From the NCBI GenBank assembly GCA_018818125.1, contig JAHISQ010000093.1, forward strand, positions 1-29,486: a stretch of DNA of 29,486 bases, read 5' to 3'. A program made the translations under genes and the position numbers. The number at the start of each line of letters is the position of its first letter. Within the stretch, counting starts at the first letter, position 1. This DNA is from Candidatus Rifleibacteriota bacterium. Its GTDB lineage: Bacteria; Muiribacteriota; Ozemobacteria; Ozemobacterales; Ozemobacteraceae. This document shows, one piece after another, positions 24,631 through 27,587 of the stretch. Under the pieces are notes generated by a model. That model saw nothing but the letters and a program-made list of their open reading frames with translations. It did no database searches and was not told the origin of the DNA.

Positions 24631-24666
24631 GTAAAAACAACAACCATAGTCATGGTTATTGTTTAA
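24631..24666 (-). terminator. Rho-independent terminator of tgt
   Basis: Minus-strand RNA forms a 12-bp stem (AACAAUAACCAU/AUGGUUGUUGUU, one G-U pair) with a GACU loop, then U5. It overlaps the tgt stop codon. Confidence 0.6.
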
Positions 24667-26693
24667 CGGATCCTAAACTGTTGATGAGTCTCTATTTGCC
24701 TGGTGATTAGATCTTTTTCAGGCTGGGAAATGTCGGGCGGAAAGCGTGAGCCACTGCGGCGCCAGCGCTGCAGCCACTGTTCACCAAGTAAAGACGGATT
24801 TGCCGGGTGCTCCCCTGCCCCGTCAGCCCGGTTAAAAGCTATGGTTGTCGCCGACTTGGGCCCGGTTGCCATTCCTTCGCCGACAAAGAAACCGGCGCGC
24901 AGCATTGCCACCCGTACTGCGGTTGCTGCTGAATAGGTGTACAGCTCAAAACTCTTATCATTACAAAATTTGAATATTTTCGTAAAAGTTTCGTGTGTCC
25001 ATAGCTCACTATCTGTTTTTGATGAGAACGGATCATAATAAATCAGATCGGGTAATGGAGCTTTAGTAAAATGTTCGAGGAAATCGCCTTTTAGAAGCTC
25101 CCAGTTCAGCAGTTGTGAGTGATGCTGCCAGCTGCCAGAGCGCAAAATATGATGTGGCGCGCCGTGTCTAAGATAGTGAAAACTCGCATTGTCACGACAT
25201 GCCAGCGCGAGCGAATCGAGATCGCATTCAAAACTGACAATTCGCAACGGCCTCATAGCCTCAGCGCCATTGTCGGCAAAAGTCTTTTCAAAGCAGTGAA
25301 CCGCTGCCATAGCGTTGGTAGCGGCTCCCAGCCCGACATCCCAGATTACCAGCTCTTTATCGCCGACCTGGTTTTTCAAAAGTCTGCTGGCAAGACGTGA
25401 CTGTTCGACATAAAGTTTTTCGGCCTCTTCGGCCGGGCGGTTAACTGAATGCATGATTTCACCGGAGCTGCGCTGTCGAATACTGGAAAAACCCTGAGCA
25501 AATTTGACAATCTCGTAATCGCCAAGTGTCGGCGTATTTGTCGTTCGCCGCTTCGGTGGGTTCTGTGGATTGTCTCCGTCGGCCAGCACCAGCACTGGTC
25601 GCATTTTATCGTAAAATTCGACAAACCTGTCACGCATTATAGCTTCTCTGATCTGCGCCATCAGACGATGATAAAATCTTATGTTATGGCAGGTCAACAG
25701 TCGCCACGCCAGCGGCTCTTCGGCCTTTACCAGATGATGCACGTAGGCGCGCGAATAGTTTTTGCAGGCATAGCAGTCACAATCAGCATCAATAGGATCT
25801 TCTGAAAACCGGTAAACCGTGCGCCTGAATTGCAGCTTGCCATGCGATGTGAAAACTGAGCCGCGATGTGCAAGCTGCGATGGAATAATGCAGTCGAACA
25901 TATCAACGCCGCGGTGTACCGCTTCCAGAATGTCGATCGGCGTGCCGACTCCCATCAGATATCGCGGCAGATTTTCAGGAAGGAACCCGGTAACCAGTTC
26001 GGTAAACTCATAACGCTCACTGTGAGTTTCGCCAACAGCGAGTCCGCCGATTGCCAGCCCATCAAAAGGCTGTTCGCGCAAAAATTCGGCACTCTGCTGG
26101 CGCAGCTCAGAATGACAGGCACCCTGCACTATTCCGAACATTGCCTGCTCCGAGTCGCCCCTGGCGGCAAGCGAACGTAGTGCCCAGCGATGTGTAAGTT
26201 CCATGGCAATTTTAGCTTCATCATAGCCCGCTGTCGAATTAATGCACTGATCCAACACCATCATGATGTCGCTGCCAATAGCCTTTTGCATATCAATACT
26301 AAGCTCAGGTGAAAGCAGAAAAGACTTGCCATCTACGTAACTGACAAATTTTGCACCCTCTTCGGTCATTTCGCGCGAATGCGGCAGCGAAAAAATCTGA
26401 AAACCGCCCGAATCAGTAAGAACCGAGCCTTTCCAGTTCATAAAACGGTGAATACCGCCGATTTTTTTGAATACTTCCGGGCCAGGCCGCAACAGCAGGT
26501 GATAGGTGTTGGCAAGCAACACTTGAGAGCCGGTTTCGACAAGGCTTTCAACCGTCATGCCCTTAACTGTTGCCCGGGTGCCAACCGGCATAAACACAGG
26601 TGTTATTACTTCACTGTGCAGCGTGTTAAAACGGGCTGCCCGAGCCCGCGAGCCATGAGCCTTCTTTTCTATTCTAAAATTGAGACGTGTCAT
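24663..26693 (-). CDS. tgt: Queuine tRNA-ribosyltransferase fused to a C-terminal MnmC-N-terminal-type (DUF752/Methyltransf_30) SAM-methyltransferase-like domain
   Basis: Residues 1-~375 parallel E. coli Tgt block for block: [86 protein letters not shown], and the Zn site [17 protein letters not shown]. The ~300-aa extension contains [12 protein letters not shown] (GxG SAM motif) and [55 protein letters not shown]. The latter matches MnmC [22 protein letters not shown]...[20 protein letters not shown]. The likely start is ATG 26693. The track start at 26759 is TTG. Confidence 0.85.
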
Positions 26694-26888
26694 CGGTGCT
26701 TCTTTGCTTTGTTTAGTGGCAGACAATATACCAAGCCCCTCGCATCTATACAAGTGCAACTTATTTTGTCTTGAAATAATAAGTAGTAGCGTATATTCTG
26801 TTCACGCGATTTTGCAGCAGAACGCTCTGAGTTGTCAGCTGTTTTTGGCTGTTCGACTCTGTTGAAGTAATAGTGAAGCAGGTAAACA

Positions 26889-27587
26889 ATGAGTAACAAT
26901 ATGATCTGGCTGATACTTCTTTTTGTGAACTACGGATTGATCGCCGTGGCTTTCAAATATTTCAGACATCAGGGGCTTTTTGTCTGGATAACGCTCGCAT
27001 CGATTCTGGCTAATATACAGGTGATAAAAACGATCGAGCTGTTTGGATTCGTAACCACGCTTGGCAACGTAATGTACGGCACATCTTTTCTGGCAACCGA
27101 TATACTCTGCGAATGTTACGGCGAAAAAGAAGCAAAAAAGGGCGTCATGATCGGTATTTTCTCGATCATCGCAACGACTCTGATCATGCAGGTCTGTCTG
27201 TGGTTTGCACCGCATTCTTCTGACACCACAAGTGAAGCTCTTAATACCATTTTCTCTCTGCTGCCGCGCATAGCTTTTGCGAGTATAACGGCTTACATGG
27301 TCAGCCAGAACTTTGATGTCTGGTTCTATAGCTATCTTAAACGCAGATACCCGCAACGTCTTTGGCTACGCAACAATCTTTCGACCATGACCAGTCAGCT
27401 GATCGACAACACAATTTTTACGCTGATGGCATTCTGGGGCGTTTTTTCTGCTGATATAGTCTGGCAGATTTTTGCTACCACCTACGTGATGAAGTGGTTC
27501 GTAGCACTGTTAGACACGCCGGTTATCTACTGGGCCAGATATGTACACAGCCGCCTTGAGCCAGTCAAAGTTGTAGATATGGCCTAG
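26889..27587 (+). CDS. yhhQ: Queuosine-precursor transporter (YhhQ/DUF165 family)
   Basis: 232 aa with about 6 TM helices. GTSFLATDILCECYGEKEAKKGVMIGIF parallels YhhQ IFLATDLTVRIFG. It is divergent from tgt. Confidence 0.75.
   Translation: MSNNMIWLILLFVNYGLIAVAFKYFRHQGLFVWITLASILANIQVIKTIELFGFVTTLGNVMYGTSFLATDILCECYGEKEAKKGVMIGIFSIIATTLIMQVCLWFAPHSSDTTSEALNTIFSLLPRIAFASITAYMVSQNFDVWFYSYLKRRYPQRLWLRNNLSTMTSQLIDNTIFTLMAFWGVFSADIVWQIFATTYVMKWFVALLDTPVIYWARYVHSRLEPVKVVDMA

Follow-up and report, generated by a model that had tools for sequence, protein, structure and literature searches.

The subject of this report is a gene on the reverse strand of contig JAHISQ010000093.1 from a Candidatus Rifleibacteriota bacterium; the whole stretch of 29,486 nucleotides is referred to as the window. 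The gene encodes a tRNA-guanine transglycosylase (Tgt) fused to a C-terminal domain related to the MnmC-type tRNA methyltransferases, and a gene for a YhhQ-type transporter lies divergently beside it (Table 1). The region 24663..26759 (-) is a single open reading frame (ORF), which amounts to 698 amino acids (aa) when counted from the furthest TTG at 26759. In the homologue alignment the ATG at 26696 fits the family consensus N-terminus MSRLNF..., giving a protein of 677 aa.

Table 1. Positions of the fused gene, its parts and its neighbours in the window
Feature	Position	Strand	Basis
Tgt–methyltransferase fusion, complete coding sequence, 677 aa + stop	24663..26696	-	ORF list; both Pfam domains in one protein; same architecture in 120 best homologues
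Tgt domain, aa 1-369	25590..26696	-	TIGR00430 above cutoff; residue alignment to Z. mobilis TGT 1ozm
Inter-domain linker, about aa 370-392, low complexity	25521..25589	-	AF2 pLDDT
MnmC2-fold SAM-dependent N-methyltransferase domain (predicted), about aa 393-625	24822..25520	-	
Clade-specific C-terminal tail, about aa 626-677, W..RW.RS + terminal H-P/Q-Q-F	24666..24821	-	conserved in stand-alone and fused members
Divergent intergenic region between fusion gene and yhhQ	26697..26888	.	Rfam scan
YhhQ/Vut_1 queuosine-precursor transporter, 232 aa	26889..27587	+	PF02592 165 bits; TIGR00697 225.6 bits (cutoff 50.95)
Bacterial homologue of eukaryotic major vault protein, 826 aa	21930..24410	-	MVP_shoulder 99 bits, Vault_3 31 bits, Band_7 26 bits
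Hypothetical protein	27640..28158	-	
Hypothetical protein	28222..28737	-	

The original prediction, which had been made from the letters of the DNA, was that this ORF joins Tgt to an extra C-terminal MnmC-type domain, and the profile searches bear this out. Pfam TGT (PF01702) covers aa 17-365 with 475 bits (E=1.6e-142) and Methyltransf_30 (PF05430) covers aa 528-620 with 47.2 bits, well above its gathering score of 22. The N-terminal half scores 454.8 bits with TIGR00430, the NCBIfam equivalog model for Tgt, against a cutoff of 306.75. Within the window ORF no stop codon or frameshift was found between the two domains. A search of a database of 5.8 billion proteins showed that the fusion is not peculiar to this assembly, the artefact that the prediction had allowed for: both domains are present in all of the 120 best homologues, which show 65-100% identity and have about 675-735 aa. 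Among their source names are Riflebacteria, the closest at 86%, as well as Verrucomicrobia/Opitutaceae/Udaeobacter, Deltaproteobacteria and Spirochaetes.

When one genome per GTDB species was scanned, at least 580 stretches encoding a relative were obtained. Of these at least 580 reference loci, the best 80 are nearly all fusions in a single ORF, and one (L014) is split. Overall we count in-frame fusions in 35 metagenomic loci and about 75 reference-genome loci. Fusions occur in Riflebacteria, Verrucomicrobiota, Thermodesulfobacteriota, Binatia, Oligoflexia and Melainabacteria. To sum up, the fusion of Tgt with an MnmC2-like domain is a real and widely conserved two-enzyme protein and not an artefact.

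As a side observation, two contigs of one metagenome-assembled genome (MAG), Candidatus Udaeobacter sp. SMAG_U10962 (L007 and L010), each carry a fusion gene, with 62% and 61% identity to the C-terminal domain of the window protein. These two copies could be due to paralogy, strain mixture or a binning artefact.

The two halves of the protein

The residues of the Tgt half were aligned one by one to the Zymomonas mobilis TGT 1ozm and to two other solved TGT sequences. The catalytic D95 and D268 are the equivalents of Z. mobilis Asp102 and Asp280. In the pocket for the base preQ1 (7-aminomethyl-7-deazaguanine) D149 and C151 correspond to Asp156 and Cys158, with a matching vlDqC motif, and V221 corresponds to Val233 and lies within GGLAVGE. 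The zinc site CxCxxC...H is kept as well (C306, C308, C311 and H337), and in an alignment of 77 fusions all these catalytic, pocket and zinc residues are invariant. Cys158 together with Val233 marks a preQ1-type pocket, while the queuine type has Val and Gly at these positions. As judged from its residues the N-terminal half is thus an ordinary bacterial Tgt of the preQ1 type; a queuine-type Tgt, as in Chlamydia or eukaryotes, is ruled out by the pocket residues. Bacterial Tgt exchanges G34 of tRNA-Asn, -Asp, -His and -Tyr (the GUN tRNAs) for preQ1. The base that this half would install therefore bears a free primary aminomethyl group.

The Tgt domains of the fusions and their relatives are 53-77% identical across phyla, compared with 43-48% identity to E. 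coli Tgt. This unusually high likeness across phyla suggests that the fused gene has spread horizontally. Over their full length the fusions from Riflebacteria, Verrucomicrobia and Deltaproteobacteria share 65-70% identity.

For the C-terminal half, the domain modelled alone with 62 homologues gave a predicted local distance difference test score (pLDDT) of 89.9 and a predicted template modelling score (pTM) of 0.89, and the model has the MnmC2 fold. The motif for binding of S-adenosylmethionine (SAM) and the D-x-F ... W block that had been read from the translation are both present: in the alignment to MnmC2 motif I corresponds to D453-V-G-L-G-A-A-T-N461, and D555-P-F557 is retained and followed by ELW. 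D555 is the equivalent of E. coli (Ec) D178 and Aquifex aeolicus (Aa) D193; the Asp of the MnmC2 D-x-F motif is the proposed base deprotonating the aminomethyl nitrogen. The ribose-binding E490 and the adenine-binding D538 are also retained, and K614 is the equivalent of E. coli MnmC K236, which is listed as RNA binding. D453, G455, G457, N461, E490 and D555-P-F557 are mostly kept, namely in 55-57 of 57 stand-alone and 73-76 of 76 fused members, and the column of D538 holds Asp in 46 of 57 stand-alone members. By alignment and model the domain looks like a catalytically competent class-I SAM-dependent methyltransferase with the MnmC2 fold. The NCBIfam model for the MnmC2 domain (NF033855) aligns to aa 409-607 of the window protein with 67.6-70 bits, below its cutoff of 136; members of the clade described below score 50-82 bits, and the validated Aquifex MnmC2 fragment, with 113.6 bits, is below the cutoff as well.

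In the full-length AlphaFold2 (AF2) model both domains are well folded (mean pLDDT 85), with a pTM of 0.55, while pLDDT drops to 54-57 at aa 371-390 and to below 50 at aa 379-385. The linker is thus predicted to be a flexible or disordered tether of about 25 residues. A fixed placement of the two active sites was sought in this model and not found. With the low pTM and the disordered linker the modelling lends no support to a fixed channel linking the active sites.

We searched the C-terminal 308 aa exhaustively against 1.84 billion cluster representatives and obtained 1665 matches at E<=1e-3 and 253 at E<=1e-30; the MnmC2 of Aquifex scores only about 36 bits against this query. The methyltransferase forms a distinct clade by sequence, which is newly shown here, and this clade unites proteins fused to Tgt with genuine stand-alone proteins of about 275-300 aa. 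In the window protein the clade-specific substitutions are S411, M415, L456 and F539. The tail at the C-terminus is predicted with high pLDDT to form helices in the domain model. A neighbour-joining tree resolved a large cluster of mostly fused members and two clusters of stand-alone members, and it placed one fusion (P0258) among stand-alone members. The tree is star-like and contaminated by fragments of fusions, so that only its coarse grouping was used. The nested position of P0258 suggests more than one fusion or fission event.

Some further members of the clade deserve mention. In P0208 (504 aa) the methyltransferase is preceded by an N-terminal AMIN domain, and P0250 (505 aa) has about 225 N-terminal aa without recognisable domain; either may represent a true alternative architecture or a merged gene call. 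Many stand-alone proteins of about 280-300 aa consisting of the methyltransferase only (P0271-P0389, P0426 and P0443) are misnamed 'queuine tRNA-ribosyltransferase' (JGI) or 'tRNA-guanine transglycosylase' (NCBI/UniRef, as in Myxococcus hansupus and Cystobacter fuscus). Presumably the names were carried over from the fused proteins.

Genomic linkage of the methyltransferase clade to tgt

For the analysis of the genomic context we collected 170 loci with the methyltransferase gene, 2.0 Mb in total with about 10 kb on each side of the gene. The first 80 loci were chosen by similarity to the fused query and are therefore biased. For a second set of 80 loci, metagenome contigs were scanned with aligned sequences from a single clade that holds stand-alone members only. 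Even this second set has tgt in 55 of its 80 loci: 35 are in-frame fusions with Tgt, in 17 a separate, full-length tgt lies immediately upstream in a different frame, and in three tgt lies 1.5-5.5 kb upstream on the same strand; the remaining 25 loci are without tgt. Taking all 170 loci together, tgt is present in 137 and yhhQ in five, and mnmE, mnmG, mnmA, queA and queG are present in none. The absence of queA and queG holds for these 2.0 Mb of carrier contigs, that is for flanks of about 10 kb, and is silent on the rest of the genomes.

Where the two genes are separate neighbours their junctions are clean. In L103 and L108 the stop codon of one gene shares a GTGA with the start codon of the next, and the overlap amounts to 10-11 nucleotides in L150 and L164. 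In the complete genome of Myxococcus stipitatus (CP102770.1) a tgt of 389 aa overlaps the methyltransferase gene (281 aa) by 4 nucleotides. A looser arrangement was found in a Polyangiaceae-like MAG with tgt 4.8 kb from the methyltransferase gene. On the contigs of Stigmatella and of three Chthoniobacterales the stand-alone gene is not linked to tgt, and for the three Chthoniobacterales genes there are no tRNA-modification neighbours on the contigs either. No neighbour family other than tgt was found in more than 7 of 80 loci, and the neighbourhoods of the fused gene are not conserved, the best cluster being present in 6 of 77 loci (UvrA, EngB) and a TrmO-like gene in 5. Linkage of the clade to tgt is thus both specific and recurrent and extends to coupling at the level of the operon, which is newly shown here.

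In L100 and L137 tgt and the methyltransferase gene are separated by genes for peptidases, DUF6068 and an AHH/Imm11 toxin-immunity pair, which have the look of insertions and not of pathway genes. In L100 (2647..7914), a contig that looks myxobacterial, the distance is about 5 kb and the genes in between encode two peptidases, DUF6068, an AHH-nuclease toxin and the Imm11 immunity protein, as if a former pair of tgt and methyltransferase gene had received an insertion. Separately, a protein of about 290 aa which resembles TrmO/TsaA (tRNA m6t6A37 methyltransferase), as judged from its motifs by eye, is encoded at most about 300 nucleotides from the fusion in five loci (L012, L032, L044 and other Opitutaceae; cluster 5).

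The divergent neighbour of the fusion gene in the window is a YhhQ-type transporter gene as originally predicted. Its adjacency is, however, no general trait of the fusion: the arrangement is restricted to the window and its four nearest Riflebacteria loci (L001-L004). In this Riflebacteria lineage the YhhQ encoded beside the fusion probably takes up the preQ1 base. A riboswitch was sought with an Rfam E-value scan of 26500..27000, which returned only a chance-level match to a small RNA (18 bits with a gathering score of 50), and the window contains no other que or mnm genes and no tRNA genes.

As to the remaining genes, the vault homologue lies directly downstream of the fusion gene and matches no NCBIfam model. 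The two hypothetical proteins on the other side of yhhQ match neither Pfam nor NCBIfam. A 168-aa homologue of the 171-aa hypothetical protein occupies the same position beside yhhQ in L001-L004, so that conservation extends beyond the fusion gene and yhhQ.

Possible functions of the fused protein

The reading that we tentatively prefer, by analogy with the validated MnmC2 enzymes, is that the methyltransferase performs ordinary synthesis of 5-methylaminomethyl-(2-thio)uridine, mnm5(s2)U. The gene product would then be a bifunctional enzyme modifying the wobble position of tRNA: the Tgt domain would swap G34 of tRNA-Asn, -Asp, -His and -Tyr for preQ1, and the linker would tether to it an N-methyltransferase which would convert the 5-aminomethyl precursor nm5(s2)U34, made by MnmEG by the ammonium route, to mnm5(s2)U34 on tRNA-Lys, -Glu, -Gln and related tRNAs. 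Fusion or an operon with tgt would serve the co-expression or co-localisation of two anticodon-loop enzymes with no shared substrate. The same fold, the same catalytic residues and the status as sole family member alongside MnmEG give a strong prior for such an isofunctional enzyme.

This last point is based on the tables of a 2023 preprint (bioRxiv 10.1101/2023.12.21.572861), in which TGT+MnmC2 fusions are already listed without functional study and counted as an MnmC2. For the carriers named there, Verrucomicrobia bacterium IMCC26134 (WP_046298500.1), Lacunisphaera limnophila IG16b (WP_069963108.1) and Verrucomicrobia bacterium HZ-65 (WP_096055212.1), the tables record no COG4121 member other than the fusion; these genomes have MnmA, MnmE and MnmG and lack YtqA/MnmL. 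The same tables list 'MnmC2 only' proteins of 281-283 aa, likewise as sole member together with MnmA/E/G and without YtqA/MnmL, in Myxococcus xanthus DK1622 (WP_011554579.1), Stigmatella, Corallococcus, Cystobacter and Archangium, and the lengths and taxa of these myxobacterial proteins match the clade members found here. MnmE and MnmG thus co-occur with the clade in the cultured carriers, that is in three Opitutaceae and in myxobacteria.

A number of points weigh against mnm5(s2)U synthesis. The three aromatic residues which cap the methyl donor and are common to the validated MnmC2 enzymes (Ec F24/Y28/F67; Aa Y63/Y67/F105) are replaced in the clade. At the first position Ser is found in 76 of 76 fused members, and in the 57 stand-alone members Ser 25, Leu 7 and Thr 7 times; the second is Met and the third Leu in fused and stand-alone members. 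In addition Ec I157 is replaced by Phe, and G179 by Pro in fused members. F67 has been reported to be variable among monofunctional MnmC2 and the capping aromatics are therefore only partly defining. The C-terminal tail is absent from E. coli and Aquifex MnmC2 as aligned, the alignments ending before it. The only recurrent genomic partner of the clade is tgt, as fusion, overlapping-gene operon or near neighbour, and an MnmC2-style association with the genes for modified wobble uridines (xm5U), mnmE, mnmG and mnmA, was found in none of the 170 loci. Since Tgt and canonical MnmC2 act on disjoint sets of tRNAs, there is no evident reason for a fusion or a translational coupling. The MnmC2 fusions whose logic is understood (MnmC1, MnmL) unite enzymes or successive steps of one pathway, and about half of the MnmEG-containing bacteria are without any MnmC2 (bioRxiv 10.1101/2023.12.21.572861), so that the status as sole member does not force an mnm5U function.

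A second reading, possible but in our view somewhat less likely, takes up the original prediction. After the action of Tgt the methyltransferase would N-methylate preQ1-34 and thereby form 7-(methylaminomethyl)-7-deazaguanosine in tRNA-Asn, -Asp, -His and -Tyr. This would apply to the whole tgt-linked clade and would be an alternative end point to queuosine without QueA or QueG/QueH. Alternatively free preQ1 would be methylated before its insertion, which is chemically possible because bacterial Tgt tolerates N-substituted preQ1, as in RNA-TAG labelling. Methylation of preQ1 would account for the tgt link being specific and recurrent in three physical forms, that is as fusion, as separate genes that overlap at their stop and start codons (metagenomic loci, M. 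stipitatus), and as near neighbours 1.5-5.5 kb apart, with no other neighbour family of comparable frequency and no linkage to xm5U genes; the nesting of P0258 suggests repeated fusion or fission. queA, which lies beside tgt in E. coli, is missing from all loci, and the preQ1-type pocket of Tgt would provide the free primary amine. The chemistry would be analogous, since in nm5U as in preQ1 a primary aminomethyl group projects from the major-groove edge of base 34, and the domain retains the catalytic Asp. The aromatic lid shared by both validated MnmC2 enzymes is replaced in the clade.

Against methylation of preQ1 stands first of all the status of the protein as sole MnmC2-like gene in cultured carriers with MnmEG. 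The clade has a mean identity of 23% to E. coli MnmC2 and of 26% to Aquifex MnmC2, and these two are 25% identical to each other. The divergence of the clade is thus no greater than theirs and must be called ordinary, which weakens the idea of a new function. Many members, such as those of Chthoniobacterales and Stigmatella, are not linked to tgt; the linkage to tgt could stem from only a few ancestral events, and the AF2 model gives no fixed geometry between the domains. Methylated preQ1 in tRNA was not reported in the literature searched, in agreement with the original prediction, which knew of none. Finally no viral 7-deazaguanine cluster uses an MnmC2-like fold, and phages methylate preQ1 in DNA with an unrelated enzyme. 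Our ranking weighs the prior for isofunctionality against a tgt-specific linkage that is otherwise hard to explain and against pocket differences that are modest.

We consider it unlikely that the C-terminal domain methylates another amine on the anticodon loop or another RNA, or that it is a tRNA-binding or regulatory appendage of Tgt. Such a role would fit the low scores of the clade with the MnmC2 model, its unique lid substitutions and unique C-terminal tail, and the fact that MnmC2 domains are also fused to the unrelated partners YhdJ and MqnD (bioRxiv 10.1101/2023.12.21.572861). However, no neighbour gene points to an alternative substrate, the catalytic Asp of D-x-F is retained, and the SAM-binding and catalytic residues are (nearly) invariant over hundreds of sequences, which favours an active enzyme over a purely structural module. 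An assembly or frameshift artefact uniting two genes, for which one could cite the separate adjacent genes of other lineages and the split locus L014, is effectively refuted by the uninterrupted ORF of the window, by the same single ORF and linker in the closest relatives from independent assemblies and sources and by the many in-frame fusions in metagenomic and reference-genome loci.

What follows from these readings differs considerably. If the domain is simply an MnmC2, the protein would be a tidy but modest case of two wobble-base enzymes in one polypeptide, and the annotation of the misnamed stand-alone methyltransferases would also be corrected. If preQ1-34 is the substrate, the product would be a new natural member of the 7-deazaguanine family in tRNA, a nucleoside not previously described. 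It would be formed in hundreds of species of several phyla by a short QueA-independent branch of the queuosine pathway, bypassing QueA and the cobalamin- or Fe-S-dependent QueG/QueH, and the MnmC2 scaffold would have been recruited from a pyrimidine to a deazapurine substrate. The question is testable, with unfused tgt-coupled members in the genetically tractable Myxococcus xanthus and fused members in cultured Lacunisphaera and Verrucomicrobia strain HZ-65.

Comparison with known systems

In its N-terminal 369 aa the window protein agrees with the Tgt of E. coli and Z. mobilis in equivalog score, catalytic Asp residues, preQ1 pocket and zinc site. Unlike E. coli Tgt it has the additional C-terminal methyltransferase of about 300 aa, and whereas queA adjoins tgt in E. 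coli, the fusion gene is without an adjacent queA.

The C-terminal half shares fold, SAM motifs and catalytic Asp with MnmC2/DUF752, that is with the N-terminal domain of E. coli MnmC and with Aquifex aeolicus MnmC2, both of which methylate nm5s2U34 to mnm5s2U34. It differs from these two enzymes by the low identity of 23-26%, by the replaced lid residues and by the extra tail, and the clade is tied genomically to tgt and not to MnmC1, MnmL or MnmEG. With respect to gene content the cultured carriers resemble Aquifex, in which MnmEG on the ammonium route is accompanied by a lone MnmC2: they too have MnmEG and one lone MnmC2-like protein.

The only known N-methylase of preQ1 is the phage protein DpdM, a DUF3109 protein with CxxxCxxCC metal sites which converts dPreQ1 to mdPreQ1 in DNA (PMC10516641). 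DpdM thus performs the reaction originally proposed for the window protein, N-methylation of the aminomethyl group of preQ1. In contrast to this metal-cluster protein acting on DNA, the window domain is predicted to be a class-I SAM methyltransferase with the MnmC2 fold, and a relation to DpdM is ruled out by the different fold. A search of viral contigs for relatives of the window methyltransferase beside 7-deazaguanine genes gave none.

The closest known counterparts are the catalogued TGT+MnmC2 fusions, which have the same architecture and size (680-696 aa) as the window protein; it is 65-70% identical to the Opitutaceae and other Verrucomicrobia members of this group. Unlike these, the copy in the window belongs to a Riflebacteria-like organism and has yhhQ as its neighbour. 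The fusion architecture as such is not new, but the operon-level linkage to tgt and the separateness of the clade are.

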